Positions 1 through 5,765 of a stretch of 32,000 nucleotides of DNA are shown piece by piece (positions within the stretch are counted from its first letter, which is position 1; each line of letters starts with the position of its first letter). The notes below the pieces were generated by a model, which saw only the letters and a list, made by a program, of their open reading frames with translations, made no database searches and was not told where the DNA came from. The position numbers and the translations under genes are program-made. The DNA comes from Candidatus Nanoclepta minutus (GTDB lineage Archaea; Nanobdellota; Nanobdellia; Nanobdellales; Nanobdellaceae): contig MWMI01000003.1 of NCBI GenBank assembly GCA_003568775.1, positions 60,001 to 92,000 of the forward strand, read 5' to 3'.

Positions 1-2088
1 TTGCAGAGAATGAAGGTTTCACTTAGCCCATCTTCCATAACTGTTTATATAAGTTCCTATAATACCTCAACTCTTTCCTTAACAATTAATGATCCTAATA
101 TAAACTCAGTAAGCTTTAGCTGTTCAGCTCCATCCGGATTAACTTGTTCAATTTCTCCAAGTAGCTTATCTTCTAATGGAACTGCAACAGTAAATGTATC
201 TGCATCTACATCAATTTCTGAGGGAACATATCAGGTTAGTATTACTGCAACATCAAATATAGGTGTAACCCTAACTAAAACTTTAACAGTTAATGTTAAA
301 CAAGTAAAAGTATACTTTACTTCAAACACACCTTCAGATGGAGCAAATCTTACTTATCTATATTTACCAATAGAGTTTTATACATCAACAAATACTGTAA
401 ATATTGAAATAAATGGAATAAACTATACCTTAACTGTAAGTCCAAATAGTATAAATAGAGTAGGACTTTACTATACATACTCAAGTCCATCTGGATTACC
501 TAGTTTACAGAGTTTTATAGGAATCTCTGGAGGATATGTAAGCTTTAGGGTATATGCAATAGGTCCTGTAGTAAACTCAACTGAAATAAGGACGGTATAC
601 CTACCACCATTGCAGTTTTACGTGAATTATCTATCTCCAACACCAAATAATGGTACAACATCAAACCTATGGTTATTACAAGTTGCAGGAGAAGTAGTTG
701 ATAATACCTTATCACAGGATTATTGTTACTTAGAATTGCTAAATCCAAATACTTCTACGTGGGATAATGTATCTTACTTACCAAACTGTAATGGATATAT
801 CTATAATACAAACTTGCAAGCATATGCAAAGGATACTGGAACGAACTATGAAGTCTGGTATAGGATAAGATTAGTTAACTCCCAGGGATTAAGCTATATA
901 GTACCTGCAAGGGTTATTTACTATTCATATAATTCACAAACAGTATCTATAGTAAATCCCTCATTAAGCTATCAGAACTTAACTTATACAATTTATAATG
1001 CAATTGCAAGCGGATCTAACTATATTGTATTTGCTCCAGGTTCTTATAGGCTAAATCTAGTAATAAACACTACGGGTTCTGTTACTTTCTTAGGAACCGG
1101 CGTTACATTACAACCCTTATCCGTGGCATCTCCAATAATAACCGTTCTAAATGGAAACGTTACGATAGATGGTTTAACTATGTATTCAAAGTTATTTGTG
1201 GTAAGAGTTGATAACGGAAATCTTGTAATCAAGAACTCAAACATAAACTCTGATTTATATGCAATTCAAACAACTTCCAATTCAACCGTTTCTATTGAAA
1301 ACTCAAACGTATATGGGAAGGTTGCAGGAATATATGCAGTTAACGGTTTATCAAGCTCTTACATATATAACTCAAAGGTTTCTTCAAACGTATGGGGAAT
1401 ATATCTAAAAGATGCTTATAGTGTTATTGTAAACTATTCCAGTGTGGATGCAAAAGTATTTGGAATAGTAATTGAGGGTAATTCTACAAACAATGTAATT
1501 GAGAATACAAATGTAAGTGCAAAGGTATTTGGAATTTACGTAAAGAGCGGGGAGAACAATATTATAAGGAATTCTTTGATAAATTCTGAAGTATTTGCAG
1601 TAAAGTTTGATTCTGGAAATAACGTAATAGAAAACTCTATAATAAACAATAAGAAAGTATTTGGAATATATTCGTTAGCGAATAACTCGATAAGAAATGT
1701 AACGATTTATGGTGGATTGTTTGGTGCTTATATGACAGGTAATGCACAAAACTTAAGACTATATGGAGCAAAGTTAGGAATAAACATATTCGGAAGCGGA
1801 TATATAGGAAACTTATCATTAGATTCCGGTAATTTCTCAATACAGTATAACGGATCTGTGATAATAAGGTCAACGAACAAGGCACCTTCTGTTGTAGGAT
1901 CGTATGTATTCGTAGGAAATCAGATAGAAATACTTGGTAGTATAAATGCAAATATAACGTTTATAACAGATTTAACAGGTAATTTGTCAGTTATAAAAAT
2001 TGTAGGAAAGTTATCGAATGTTATAAGCAATACCACAACCTTTACTCCACAGGGATATGGAATATATGGACTATATATGACTGGCTAA
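1..2088 (+). CDS. Surface/secreted protein, 5'-truncated by the window edge: Ig-like N-terminal region followed by right-handed parallel beta-helix (PbH1/NosD-like) repeats
   Basis: The ORF is open from position 1 and has no signal peptide, so the true N-terminus is probably upstream. The N-terminal 'GTYQVSITATS...LTVNV' resembles Ig-like/CARDB surface domains. Residues ~400-600 carry periodic N-S-x-I/V-x-N turns and recurring KVFGIY/KVAGIY/NVWGIY/EVFAVK strands typical of PbH1 repeats. N-x-S/T sequons are very dense. Confidence 0.7.
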   Translation: MQRMKVSLSPSSITVYISSYNTSTLSLTINDPNINSVSFSCSAPSGLTCSISPSSLSSNGTATVNVSASTSISEGTYQVSITATSNIGVTLTKTLTVNVKQVKVYFTSNTPSDGANLTYLYLPIEFYTSTNTVNIEINGINYTLTVSPNSINRVGLYYTYSSPSGLPSLQSFIGISGGYVSFRVYAIGPVVNSTEIRTVYLPPLQFYVNYLSPTPNNGTTSNLWLLQVAGEVVDNTLSQDYCYLELLNPNTSTWDNVSYLPNCNGYIYNTNLQAYAKDTGTNYEVWYRIRLVNSQGLSYIVPARVIYYSYNSQTVSIVNPSLSYQNLTYTIYNAIASGSNYIVFAPGSYRLNLVINTTGSVTFLGTGVTLQPLSVASPIITVLNGNVTIDGLTMYSKLFVVRVDNGNLVIKNSNINSDLYAIQTTSNSTVSIENSNVYGKVAGIYAVNGLSSSYIYNSKVSSNVWGIYLKDAYSVIVNYSSVDAKVFGIVIEGNSTNNVIENTNVSAKVFGIYVKSGENNIIRNSLINSEVFAVKFDSGNNVIENSIINNKKVFGIYSLANNSIRNVTIYGGLFGAYMTGNAQNLRLYGAKLGINIFGSGYIGNLSLDSGNFSIQYNGSVIIRSTNKAPSVVGSYVFVGNQIEILGSINANITFITDLTGNLSVIKIVGKLSNVISNTTTFTPQGYGIYGLYMTG
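1201..1800 (+). repeat. Intragenic tandem coding repeats (about 22 aa period) forming the beta-helix coils of the surface protein
   Basis: The nucleotide motif aa(a/g)gtatttggaat recurs, and the protein motif (K/N/E)V(F/A/W)G(I)Y recurs at regular spacing. Confidence 0.6.
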
Positions 2089-2181
2089 AATAATTTTTAA
2101 TATGCGTTCCTTAACTTTTTTGCTATATTTTAAACAGTTTATTTTTAATTAGTTTAAGGATTTCCCTTATAAATTATCTTT

Positions 2182-3279
2182 ATGCTATGTAAGCATTTTG
2201 ATAAGTGTGGTGGATGTCAAATACAAAACCTTTCATATGAAGAGCAATTAAGCTTAAAGGTTAATGAGGTAATTGATATATTTAAGAAAGAGCCGGAAGA
2301 AGTAATTCCTTCTCCAAAGATATTCTATTATAGAAATAGAATGGATTGGGCAGTTGGAAAGAATTATGAGGTTGGATTAAAGGAATTTGGAAAGTGGTGG
2401 GAATATGTTGATATATACGAATGTTTGTTGCAATCCAAGGAAAGCGATTATATAAGAAATGAATTTAGGAATTTTATAAAAGAAAATGGATTAGAACCTT
2501 GGGATAATAAAAATCATGAGGGTTTAGTTAGGTATTTAATAGTTAGAGAAGGTAAGTCTACTAAAGAAAGGATGATAATAATTTTATTATCTAGATTAGA
2601 AAATAAGGAATTGTTTTTAGAGTTTTTGGAAAGAATAAAGGATAAAATAACTTCTGCATATATAGGGATTAATCCAGAGATATCAGATGTCTCGTATTCT
2701 CATGAAAAATATTTAATATACGGTGATAAATATCTAAGGGAAAAGGCTTTAGATAACGTTTATTATATTCTACCGAACTCTTTCTTTCAACCAAACAGTT
2801 ATACTTTACCGATAATGATAAAAAGAGCTATTGAATTCTTAGATCCTAAAGAAAACGAAACAATATACGATCTATATAGTGGTATTGGTACTTTTTCAAT
2901 AGAAATTGCAAAGTATTCTAAGAAAGTTATTGGCATAGATGTAGAAAAAGAGACAGAAGAACTGTTTTATAAAAACTCTTTTGAAAATGGAGTAAGTAAT
3001 ACAGAATTTATCCTCTCAAAAGTTGAGGATTTGAATGAAATTAAAGCAGATAAGATTGTTTTAGATCCGCCTAGAGGCGGTATTCATCCGAAGGTTATAG
3101 GGTTAATCGGTAATTCTGGAGCAAAGAGAGTAGTTTACGTTTCGTGTAATCCTAGAACACAATACAGAGATATAAAAAAATTAAAAAAGTTTGGATATTC
3201 TCTGGAAAAGTATATTTTAATAGATCAATTCCCACACACTTTTCATATAGAATCAATTGCTGTTTTAGAAAAAAGGTAA
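2182..3279 (+). CDS. RumA/TrmA-family RNA (uracil-C5)-methyltransferase (m5U), lacking the N-terminal TRAM domain
   Basis: The N-terminus starts directly at the Fe-S cluster signature CKHFDKCGGC (C-x5-C-x2-C), with a later Cys in YECLL. SAM-binding 'DLYSGIGTFS' and 'VLDPPRGG', and the catalytic 'YVSCNP' motif, are characteristic of the RumA/TrmA family. Confidence 0.85.
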   Translation: MLCKHFDKCGGCQIQNLSYEEQLSLKVNEVIDIFKKEPEEVIPSPKIFYYRNRMDWAVGKNYEVGLKEFGKWWEYVDIYECLLQSKESDYIRNEFRNFIKENGLEPWDNKNHEGLVRYLIVREGKSTKERMIIILLSRLENKELFLEFLERIKDKITSAYIGINPEISDVSYSHEKYLIYGDKYLREKALDNVYYILPNSFFQPNSYTLPIMIKRAIEFLDPKENETIYDLYSGIGTFSIEIAKYSKKVIGIDVEKETEELFYKNSFENGVSNTEFILSKVEDLNEIKADKIVLDPPRGGIHPKVIGLIGNSGAKRVVYVSCNPRTQYRDIKKLKKFGYSLEKYILIDQFPHTFHIESIAVLEKR

Positions 3280-4225: not shown

Positions 4226-4297
4226 GCCGCCGTAGCTCAGCGGTAGAGCGGCGGACTTGTAATCCGCAGGTCGCGGGTTCAAATCCCGCCGGCGGCT
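4226..4297 (+). tRNA. tRNA-Thr (anticodon UGU), intronless, no encoded CCA
   Basis: Manual cloverleaf: acceptor GCCGCCG/CGGCGGC, D stem GCTC/GAGC, anticodon stem GCGGA/TCCGC, loop CTTGTAA, T stem GCGGG/CCCGC, T loop TTCAAAT, discriminator U. Confidence 0.95.
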
Positions 4298-4309: not shown

Positions 4310-4395
4310 AAGCAGTATCAAATATTAAAAAACTTATTGTAGAATTAACTAATATTATAGCCCCCGTGGTGTAGCGGCAGCATACGGGACTGTCG

Positions 4396-4881
4396 TCCCG
4401 CTCACCCGCGATCTTTAATATTTTTACCGTTAATCATAATTTAAAATATGGAAAAGGCTTGGGTTTTTATTGCTATTGGTTTACTATTAGGAGAGGGACA
4501 TTTTGGTAAAAAGGAATATAGAAATCAGGGGAGGATTGTATTTTCAAATACGAATCCTGTATATGTAAGGCTTGTCTATAAATTATTTACAGAGTTTTTT
4601 AACGTTCCCAAAAACAAAATTAAAGTATATATCTATTATAACTTAAATTACTATAAATTAGTAGAAGAAATACGAATGTTTTGGTCTAAATCTCTAAAGA
4701 TACCTGATGAATATATCAGAATTTATACATATAAGAGAGATATAAAAAGAATTACTAGGCAATCAGAGAGGTGGGGGATATGTCAACTAAGAATAGACGA
4801 TGTGAACATTAAGGATAGGATAGAAAACTTTTTAAGCTCTCTTTTTCAAAAATATTATATAGAGGGGTGAGCGGGGCAGAG
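4396..4881 (+). mobile_element. Archaeal BHB-type tRNA intron (486 nt) carrying a LAGLIDADG-like ORF; putative mobile (homing) intron
   Basis: Central 4-bp helix 4390-4393 (CUGU) pairs with 4876-4879 (GCAG). The 3-nt bulges are 4394-4396 (CG|U) and 4880-4882 (AG|A). An 11-bp outer helix pairs 4397-4407 (CCCGCUCACCC) with 4865-4875 (GGGUGAGCGGG). The intron interior has genome-like AT content. Confidence 0.85.
4448..4870 (+). CDS. Intron-encoded single-motif LAGLIDADG-type homing endonuclease-like protein (140 aa)
   Basis: The N-terminal 'FIAIGLLLGEGHF' (motif codons 4472-4498) fits LAGLIDADG, with the conserved Gly at positions 3 and 9 and an acidic Glu at position 8. The downstream 'GRIVFSNTNPVYVRLVYKLFTEFF' and 'ICQLRIDDVNIKDRIENFL' resemble the beta-alpha core of the family. 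The ORF lies entirely inside the intron, and its TGA stop (4868-4870) sits in the BHB outer helix. Confidence 0.7.
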   Translation: MEKAWVFIAIGLLLGEGHFGKKEYRNQGRIVFSNTNPVYVRLVYKLFTEFFNVPKNKIKVYIYYNLNYYKLVEEIRMFWSKSLKIPDEYIRIYTYKRDIKRITRQSERWGICQLRIDDVNIKDRIENFLSSLFQKYYIEG

Positions 4882-4916
4882 ATCCCGAGGCCCGGGTTCG
4901 AATCCCGGCGGGGGCG

Positions 4917-5765
4917 TTAGAATTCTTCTAATATATAACTTTTTGCAACTTCATTTGCAAACTTTAACCTTTCTTCATCGTTAAGCCCCTTATAATATCC
5001 ATAAAAGTTCGCTGCATTCCAAGTATCTCCAGCTCCAGTCAGGATCTTAGGTCTTACTTTTTCTATTTTCAAATAAGCCTTTGATGGTAAAGAATATACA
5101 AAATCTGAGGAATGAACGTCTAGATTTTCTACATTTATTTCTCTAAATAACTTATTAGCTATTTCTATATAATTATCTCCCTCAATTCCTAAGTAATTAC
5201 TTAAATAGCTTACCTCATATTCGTTTAAACTTAATACCCATATCCTTTTACTTTTAAGTATCCTTATTAGCTCATTAATGTTTTCTTTATTTATGGATGG
5301 GTCTCCTATATCTAAATATATTTTTGCATTAGAGACTTCTGTAATCCACTTTAATAGATCGTTAGATTTTTTGTTGTTATTCCAATTTCCAAAAAATATA
5401 TATTTAGATCGTTTAATTATCTCTCTATATTCCTCAATTTTATCTACTTGAATTCCCCTTGAATCTGTTAGCATGACCCTATCTTCTTCCTCTAAAGAGA
5501 CCGTGATATTATCTGATGTAAAATAGGGATATAGGGTTACGTTATACCTCTCAATAGAACTCTTGAATAAGTTATAAGATAGTTCTCCTAAGCAGGCTAT
5601 CAAGTTATTTTTTATTCCTAACTTTCCTAAAGCTATAGAAAAATTTGCGGCATTACCCCCAATTTTCATTTTCGCTATAGATCTTATGTTACCAGTCCTT
5701 TTATCCAATTTTTCAATTGGTTTTACAATAATATCTATGAACAGATCGGGCAGACTAGTTATCAT
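4917..5765 (-). CDS. PfkB/ribokinase-family carbohydrate kinase
   Basis: It carries the N-terminal 'GGNAANFSIALGKLG' and the C-terminal 'TGAGDTWNAANFYG' PfkB signatures. It overlaps the upstream flippase gene by 11 nt. Confidence 0.8.
   Translation of the reverse strand: MITSLPDLFIDIIVKPIEKLDKRTGNIRSIAKMKIGGNAANFSIALGKLGIKNNLIACLGELSYNLFKSSIERYNVTLYPYFTSDNITVSLEEEDRVMLTDSRGIQVDKIEEYREIIKRSKYIFFGNWNNNKKSNDLLKWITEVSNAKIYLDIGDPSINKENINELIRILKSKRIWVLSLNEYEVSYLSNYLGIEGDNYIEIANKLFREINVENLDVHSSDFVYSLPSKAYLKIEKVRPKILTGAGDTWNAANFYGYYKGLNDEERLKFANEVAKSYILEEF

Follow-up and report, generated by a model that had tools for sequence, protein, structure and literature searches.

Introns of the bulge-helix-bulge (BHB) type that encode LAGLIDADG endonucleases are known from archaeal ribosomal RNA (rRNA) genes, among them 16S rRNA introns of Thermoproteales and the Desulfurococcus (D. 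mobilis) 23S rRNA intron, whose enzyme I-DmoI is a two-motif monomer. In bacteria and phages, self-splicing group I introns of transfer RNA (tRNA) genes likewise interrupt the anticodon loop and carry their own homing endonuclease gene, and that of the cyanobacterial tRNA-fMet encodes I-Ssp6803I, a non-LAGLIDADG enzyme. The archaeal rRNA BHB introns with LAGLIDADG genes include single-motif forms (PMC4496867), and homing by the intron-encoded endonuclease has been proposed for archaeal small-subunit rRNA introns (PMC4496867, PMC3082918). Archaeal tRNA introns, as surveyed in 90 genomes, measure 11-129 nucleotides (nt) with a median of ∼15 and contain no open reading frame (ORF), the largest of them carrying C/D box small RNAs (PMC3218864). 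Here we analyze a stretch of 32,000 nt from contig MWMI01000003.1 of Candidatus Nanoclepta minutus (hereafter the window), in which a tRNA-Asp(GUC) gene is interrupted by a 486-nt BHB intron containing an ORF for a probable LAGLIDADG-type homing endonuclease.

For tRNA-Asp itself, a 37/38 intron with a helix-flanked BHB (hBHBh') and a 14-bp G+C-rich stem has been described in A. pernix, where the two halves are transcribed separately, and a split gene with an hBHBh' at the same position in Thermosphaera; the gene is uninterrupted in six of eight sequenced Desulfurococcales, and an agent specific for tRNA-Asp has been suggested (Chan et al., 2011).

A tRNA-Asp(GUC) gene split at the canonical intron position

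The locus is a tRNA-Asp(GUC) gene split at position 37/38 by a canonical hBHBh' intron (Table 1). Once joined, the exons of 36 and 35 nt form a 71-nt cloverleaf that ARAGORN identifies as tRNA-Asp(gtc), and the unspliced locus is called as 'tRNA-Asp (gtc) i(37,486)' when long introns are allowed. An earlier reading of this DNA from its letters alone (the sequence-only reading) had proposed this tRNA, with its GUC anticodon, G10-U25 pair and G73 discriminator, as well as a 3-4-3 BHB with an 11-bp outer helix. All of these hallmarks are present, and the pairs are exactly those it had listed: the anticodon stem joins 4385-4389 to 4883-4887, the 4-bp central helix consists of C-G, U-A, G-C and U-G, and 11 of 11 positions of the outer helix pair perfectly. 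The same hBHBh' structure is recovered by an unconstrained minimum-free-energy fold of the whole 557 nt, in which the exons have a G+C content of 73% and the intron one of 30%.

Intron removal restores a tRNA-Asp whose anticodon arm is identical, and whose remainder is near-identical, to uninterrupted nanoarchaeal orthologues, which score 62-63 bits with the Rfam tRNA model. The arrangement is beyond what chance would produce, because the layout of exons, BHB, helix and ORF is found again in nine other loci, whose outer helices show compensatory changes, and because the joined exons match orthologous uninterrupted genes. The window gene is reported neither by ARAGORN at default settings nor by the Rfam tRNA model, which also misses the tRNA-Asp copies of three of the related loci (L003, L005 and L007); such a gene is thus easily overlooked.

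The intron shares its position, its hBHBh' form and presumably its splicing enzymes with ordinary archaeal 37/38 tRNA introns, but differs from them in being protein-coding and, as the sequence-only reading had pointed out, in a length far above the published range. With the LAGLIDADG-encoding rRNA introns it has in common the BHB, the tRNA splicing endonuclease (here inferred), a LAGLIDADG-type ORF, a patchy distribution with intact and decayed ORFs, and an occurrence in Desulfurococcales, whereas the host gene here is a tRNA gene, interrupted at the canonical site.

Table 1. Coordinates of the intron-bearing tRNA-Asp gene and its surroundings in the window, and of features in related loci (each in the numbering of the locus named). 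A slash within a sequence marks the splice junction or insertion point.
Feature	Coordinates	Strand	Remarks
tRNA-Asp(GUC) exon 1	4360..4395	+	tRNA positions 1-37; ARAGORN; anticodon GUC = 4392-4394
BHB, 5' side	4390..4396	+	helix strand 4390-4393 and 3-nt bulge CG/U 4394-4396; predicted cut 4395/4396
BHB intron	4396..4881	+	486 nt; canonical position 37/38, one base 3' of the anticodon
Outer helix, 5' strand	4397..4407	+	CCCGCUCACCC; G+C-rich; 11 bp
TATA-like box	4414..4421	+	TTTAATAT; ∼30 nt upstream of the ORF start; read from sequence
Intron ORF	4448..4870	+	140 aa; probable single-motif LAGLIDADG-type homing endonuclease; motif AIGLLLGEG, Glu16
Outer helix, 3' strand	4865..4875	+	GGGUGAGCGGG; overlaps last ORF codons and stop codon
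BHB, 3' side	4876..4882	+	helix strand 4876-4879 and 3-nt bulge AG/A 4880-4882; predicted cut 4881/4882
tRNA-Asp exon 2	4882..4916	+	positions 38-73; discriminator G73 at 4916; CCA not encoded
tRNA-Thr(UGU)	4226..4297	+	upstream neighbor; synteny anchor
PfkB-family kinase gene	4917..5765	-	downstream neighbor; synteny anchor to intron-less loci
Crenarchaeal ORF (example)	L003 3000-3459		equivalents in L005-L007
Decayed ORF	L002 1190-1567		in-frame deletion of the LAGLIDADG motif and further indels
Decayed ORFs	L008 1456-1925; L009 1463-1916		frameshifts
Second LAGLIDADG gene	L004 1659-2546; L007 857-1750; L006 2840-3379	-	L006 copy cut by locus end
Intron-less tRNA-Asp DNA, putative cleavage target			CATACGGGACTGTCGATCCCGAGG
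Intron-less alleles, putative targets	L010 tRNA-Asp		L010 gene or synthetic CATACGGGACTGTCGATCCCGAGGCC; crenarchaeal GCGGGCCTGTCGAGCCCGTGACC

The protein encoded in the intron

The intron ORF, whose stop codon is part of the outer helix's 3' strand, encodes a protein that starts with MEKAWVFIAIGLLLGEGHF and contains a single LAGLIDADG-like motif, as had been claimed. It shares 99% identity with 'hypothetical protein BA065_01165' from Nanoarchaeota archaeon NZ13-N, a metagenome-assembled genome close to the window organism, and 86% with the copy in the nanoarchaeal locus L001. The ratio of nonsynonymous to synonymous divergence (dN/dS) is 0.115 between the window and L001, at a dS of 0.55, and 0.14-0.20 among crenarchaeal copies, purifying selection that identifies the ORF as a real gene. 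Within the motif AIGLLLGEG, none of the seven intact family members or 38 wider relatives departs from Glu16 and Gly17, and Asn34 is likewise invariant across those 38.

The product is a probable divergent single-motif LAGLIDADG-type enzyme, a grade that reflects the motif together with weak-to-moderate profile matches. Among the Pfam models, LAGLIDADG_2 (PF03161) matches with an E value of 6.3e-5 (23.4 bits) and PF14528 with one of 0.38, while in the wider relatives LAGLIDADG_3 is matched by 6 of the 38 proteins and LAGLIDADG_2 by 2 (E < 0.01). A HMMER search of 1.84 billion representatives returned only four clusters at E < 1e-10, plus about 95 distant relatives, which are mostly ∼220-240 aa long with the ORF-like domain as their C-terminal half; a helix-turn-helix is found at the N-terminus of many sampled proteins (HTH_23 in 11 of 38). 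Profiles that include these distant relatives (A4, A5) match residues 85-146 of I-DmoI, its second LAGLIDADG domain, at E values of 5.5e-5 to 3.8e-4, with the invariant Glu16 aligned to the I-DmoI motif GLYVAEGD. A four-sequence profile of the family only had no match in the PDB, the I-DmoI match appearing only once the distant relatives were added. Aligned with hhalign, the seven intact family members (A6) match I-DmoI with an E value of 1.6e-4 and I-CreI with one of 0.036, both reference sequences having been entered by hand. The best solved-structure match of the family profile is thus the enzyme of an rRNA BHB intron, I-DmoI itself.

Two confident AlphaFold models (pLDDT 84.8 and 92.9) predict the topology helix-strand-strand-helix-strand followed by an extra helix, two strands and a final long helix. 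With this additional helix between strands, the second domain half is atypical, which sets the family apart from the rRNA BHB intron enzymes. When searched with Foldseek against a viral library, only DOD/intein endonuclease domains surfaced, at E values of ∼0.3. Unlike the two-motif I-DmoI, members of this family are 140-155 aa long and contain one motif, implying that they form homodimers. They share with the single-motif homodimers of the I-CreI type one motif per chain, an acidic residue at the catalytic position and a size of ∼140-160 aa, and a preference for pseudo-palindromic targets, characteristic of that type, would be expected here too; yet the sequence relation to I-CreI is the marginal one given above, and the closer relatives of the ORF are the ∼220-240-aa proteins. 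The single motif, taken as unusual in the sequence-only reading, is less so given the single-motif endonucleases reported from archaeal rRNA introns (PMC4496867).

As to expression, the TATA-like box is kept in L001 and L002 and might be an internal promoter, giving a near-leaderless mRNA. The 40-nt spacer around it is more conserved than synonymous sites, with differences at 6 of 40 positions (hand count on the alignment of window, L001 and L002) where the synonymous difference of the ORF is 0.39. Translation of the protein would rely either on such a promoter within the intron or on the intron once excised; for the crenarchaeal copies, the excised RNA would begin a single base ahead of the AUG and so be a leaderless message.

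Filled and empty tRNA-Asp sites

Homologous introns of 441-567 nt lie at the 37/38 position of tRNA-Asp(GUC) in nine further loci, which brings the filled sites to ten. Two are nanoarchaeal contigs from one hot-spring sample with the same arrangement of tRNA-Thr and intron-bearing tRNA-Asp (L001, L002), one is from an assembly of higher G+C content (L003), and six (L004-L009) were retrieved by a protein-guided scan of one genome per species, all six matches being metagenome-assembled genomes (MAGs) of Desulfurococcales or Acidilobaceae; with L003, the Desulfurococcales/Acidilobaceae loci number seven. Both tRNA halves and the ORF are contiguous and on the same strand in all ten loci. The BHB is retained in every one of them, L004 and L006 each having a single mismatch in the central helix, and the outer helix, 11-20 bp long, varies in sequence by lineage through compensatory changes, those of the Desulfurococcales copies included. 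The ORF is intact and under purifying selection in seven loci and decayed in three (L002, L008, L009); exons and BHB are intact despite this decay, and so is the helix of L002.

In the crenarchaeal copies the ORF begins with an ATG at intron bases 2-4, and its frame ends at a TGA within exon 2, in the variable loop, in L003, L005, L006 and L007, while that of L004 stops earlier, within the intron. Unlike in the rRNA BHB introns, the crenarchaeal ORF thus fills the entire intron, from base 2 into exon 2. The complementary strands of the outer helix code for the N-terminus (MSLPH) and the C-terminus (VGEGH) of its product, the helix sequence thus being coding and structural at once. An endless frame across the circularized L003 intron was considered and rejected, its 451 nt not being a multiple of 3 and a stop following six codons past the junction. 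Nanoarchaeal and crenarchaeal ORF products are 37-45% identical, those of Acidilobaceae and Desulfurococcaceae 45-51%.

Empty sites were found on both sides. A pattern search with the anticodon arm yielded 14 nanoarchaeal contigs (21-26% G+C) with an uninterrupted tRNA-Asp, in all of which the surroundings of the insertion point, CATACGGGACTGTCG/ATCCCG, are identical to those of the window, exon 1 stretch included. An orthologue of the window PfkB kinase (58-65% identity) adjoins the uninterrupted gene in all 13 contigs that cover this position, and those reaching far enough have an archaellin gene and tRNA-Thr upstream. The homing site predicted by the sequence-only reading, CGGGACTGTCG/ATCCCG, is therefore occupied by intron-less alleles in related nanoarchaeotes, next to a syntenic gene. 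Within the Nanoclepta-like lineage no intron-less allele was found, the empty sites belonging to more distant nanoarchaeotes (neighbor proteins ∼47-60% identical). Among crenarchaea, the uninterrupted tRNA-Asp genes of Thermogladius calderae, Desulfurococcales ex4484_58 and one Desulfurococcus MAG equal the joined exons of L003/L007, and the gene order Nop10, radical-SAM, tRNA-Asp is common to L026, which is empty, and L008, which is filled with a decayed ORF. These nanoarchaeal and Desulfurococcales empty sites contradict an intron presence that simply follows phylogeny without empty sites in close relatives. The scattered distribution, the identical targets at empty sites and the coexistence of intact and decaying ORFs add up to the standard signature of a homing element.

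The tRNA-Asp genes of Thermosphaera and, by its published description, A. pernix, both Desulfurococcales, share with the present intron the 37/38 junction and an hBHBh' with a 12-14-bp G+C-rich helix, but have no ORF, and the Thermosphaera halves lie on opposite strands. In T. aggregans (CP001939) they are convergent and ∼85 nt apart (L030 4065-4225), an arrangement shared by four Thermosphaera MAG loci (L032-L035). The junction flanks CACGCCCTTCTCC and GGAGAAGGGCGTG form the same BHB and a 12-bp helix, and resemble the termini of the ORF-bearing introns (of the CATGCCCCTCCCCC and GGGGGAGGGGCATG type), with ACG replacing ATG. This resemblance suggests that the Thermosphaera split genes may descend from an endonuclease-bearing intron. 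A tblastn search between and around the T. aggregans halves found no ORF remnant, the only matches being to the C-terminal peptide encoded by helix and exon; all Thermosphaera MAGs examined share the split state, and no ORF-bearing intermediate was found among them.

The neighbors of the window gene, an archaellin, tRNA-Thr and the PfkB kinase, have orthologues in very A+T-rich nanoarchaeal contigs from hot springs. The kinase lies downstream of tRNA-Asp both in the window and in the intron-less nanoarchaeotes, unlike in L001, where a TaqI-like restriction endonuclease gene (Pfam RE_TaqI; 2014-2823, minus strand) takes its place. The spacing between tRNA-Thr and tRNA-Asp is ∼2.9 kb in the intron-less L010, L011, L014, L017 and L023, and 36-62 nt in the window, L001 and L002. 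In three Desulfurococcales loci, the intron-bearing tRNA-Asp is immediately followed downstream, on the opposite strand, by a free-standing LAGLIDADG gene with two motifs and ∼295 aa (Table 1); the copies of L004 and L007 match Pfam LAGLIDADG_1/_3 above threshold. No LAGLIDADG family was found among the gene calls beside the empty-site tRNA-Asp genes of L025, L026 and L029. This second gene may belong to a composite mobile region at tRNA-Asp. On the contig of the L003 tRNA-Asp, ARAGORN also calls a tRNA-His(GTG) interrupted at position 39 by a 42-nt intron (353-469, minus strand), where the Rfam tRNA model matches as well.

Proposed mobility, history and significance of the intron

Taken together, these comparisons make it quite probable that the window carries a homing-endonuclease-bearing BHB intron in a nanoarchaeal tRNA-Asp(GUC) gene, probably exchanged between host and symbiont lineages. 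The pre-tRNA would fold such that its junctions form a helix-bulge-helix-bulge-helix clamped by the 11-bp G+C-rich helix. Cuts in the two 3-nt bulges would be made by EndA, the tRNA splicing endonuclease of the cell, and the RtcB ligase would join the exons into the 71-nt tRNA-Asp and circularize the intron. The ORF product would act as a homodimer and cut tRNA-Asp DNA that lacks the intron, in the region of the anticodon-arm sequence CGGGACTGTCG/ATCCCG, a target that suits a homodimeric, one-motif enzyme because the anticodon stem makes it partly palindromic. Repair from the intron-bearing copy would then spread the intron.

Few positions distinguish ACGGGACTGTCG/ATCCCG from GCGGGCCTGTCG/AGCCCG, the targets of the two phyla, and homing across phyla is plausible since Desulfurococcales and nanoarchaeotes offer nearly the same site. 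We infer a family of elements specific for one site in tRNA-Asp, present in Desulfurococcales/Acidilobaceae and in this nanoarchaeal lineage, with horizontal passage between host and symbiont lineages as the most likely route. The identity between nanoarchaeal and crenarchaeal ORF products comes close to that between Acidilobaceae and Desulfurococcaceae, which fits such a horizontal passage, though not a recent one.

Several points weigh against this reading. The Pfam score of the ORF is below the curated cut-off of 25 bits and no curated family model matches above its threshold, profile matches are restricted to the N-terminal half of the domain, and Foldseek with both AlphaFold models found no significant match to solved LAGLIDADG structures (top TM ∼0.3). 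The support for the earlier proposal of a LAGLIDADG protein is the motif and the profile relation (LAGLIDADG_2 as above, I-DmoI at E ∼1e-4). Because the nanoarchaeal copies form the most divergent branch, they would fit a transfer in either direction and of various ages. Furthermore, the sequence does not separate cis-splicing from the separate transcription of adjacent halves, as in A. pernix tRNA-Asp, and a second, intact tRNA-Asp gene may exist elsewhere in the genome, of which 32 kb was examined.

Separate transcription, each half from its own promoter, would make the locus a split tRNA with adjacent halves that are joined in trans through the 11-bp helix and the BHB, with the ORF as an independent gene between them. 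The Nanoarchaeota are the classic carriers of split tRNAs (e.g., Nanoarchaeum equitans), the intron interior is A+T-rich with TATA-like strings, and the '121-nt intron' of A. pernix tRNA-Asp yields mainly two transcripts from an internal promoter (Chan et al., 2011); in Thermosphaera, halves of this junction design are even genuinely apart and convergent. We nevertheless consider this organization unlikely, since halves and ORF are contiguous on one strand in each of the ten filled loci, and since the Desulfurococcales ORF, running from intron base 2 past the 3' splice site into exon 2, shows that ORF and 3' half are not cleanly separate units. In the window, moreover, no well-placed TATA box was seen by eye upstream of the 3' helix strand, and under either organization this BHB would be processed by the same two enzymes, endonuclease and ligase.

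The intron might also be fixed and immobile, a vertical relic whose protein is no longer a homing enzyme and either has another role, e.g., in nucleic-acid binding, or has not yet decayed. Purifying selection over a dS of 0.55 between the window and L001 is hard to explain after fixation in a classical homing cycle, and the atypical second domain half with its extra helix, the missing structural match and the confinement of empty sites to nanoarchaeotes outside the Nanoclepta-like lineage all fit a relic. This is quite doubtful, however, given that the motif and the Glu at the catalytic position are invariant in all intact copies and that decay in L002 has deleted exactly the LAGLIDADG motif; intact and decayed copies with a patchy presence are the usual sign of active homing cycles, and occurrence at the same site in a different phylum requires mobility at some time. 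That a small selfish gene has merely disrupted a tRNA-Asp pseudogene, a functional copy lying elsewhere, would agree with the failure of standard tRNA finders to report the gene and with the limited stretch of genome at hand. It is very improbable considering that the exons are intact and G+C-rich, that BHB and outer helix are kept with compensatory changes over ten loci, even where the ORF has decayed, that the locus corresponds in position to its tRNA-Asp orthologue in related nanoarchaeal contigs, and that a random disruption would not insert exactly at 37/38 and create a perfect splice motif. Bacterial tRNA introns of group I also occupy the anticodon loop. LAGLIDADG-bearing group I introns are known in archaeal rRNA genes (PMC6125680). 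A self-splicing intron of this kind with a homing endonuclease gene is extremely improbable here, as the ∼60 nt of intron outside the ORF are too few for a ribozyme core and the junctions form a textbook BHB, whose splicing would depend on host proteins; introns of groups I and II were both rejected, no Rfam model of either matching at E ≤ 10.

The 'new class of mobile element' proposed in the sequence-only reading is too strong a term. The combination of a BHB intron with a LAGLIDADG gene is known from rRNA; what appears to be new is its presence in a tRNA gene, at the canonical intron site. A full-text search, which did not cover the Nanoclepta genome paper, turned up no account of an archaeal tRNA BHB intron with an endonuclease gene. 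A thermostable, homodimeric enzyme directed against a tRNA anticodon arm would extend the homing-endonuclease repertoire. Because default tRNA finders miss the intron-bearing genes, affected genomes will seem to lack tRNA-Asp, and the ORF is deposited as a 'hypothetical protein'. The presence of the family in a nanoarchaeote and in Desulfurococcales, the order of the reported Nanoclepta host, makes it a candidate marker of gene flow between ectosymbiont and host.

The gain of tRNA introns and the origin of split tRNAs have been debated for two decades without a demonstrated mechanism at the DNA level. In reviews and in a 2023 meeting report, the movement of tRNA introns is regarded as transposition without proteins; another proposal is that the introns protect against viral integration. 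An endonuclease-carrying BHB intron at the canonical site would supply such a mechanism. We tentatively raise the possibility, which we would not yet call likely, that this family is the tRNA-Asp-specific agent of Chan et al. (2011), and that it has repeatedly invaded tRNA-Asp(GUC) and crossed between Desulfurococcales hosts and nanoarchaeal ectosymbionts, in which the anticodon-arm target is nearly the same. Loss of the ORF would have led to long ORF-less introns, as in A. pernix, and rearrangement to split genes, as in Thermosphaera. If true, this would explain by a concrete DNA-level mechanism how archaea gain tRNA introns at the canonical position and how their split tRNAs arise.

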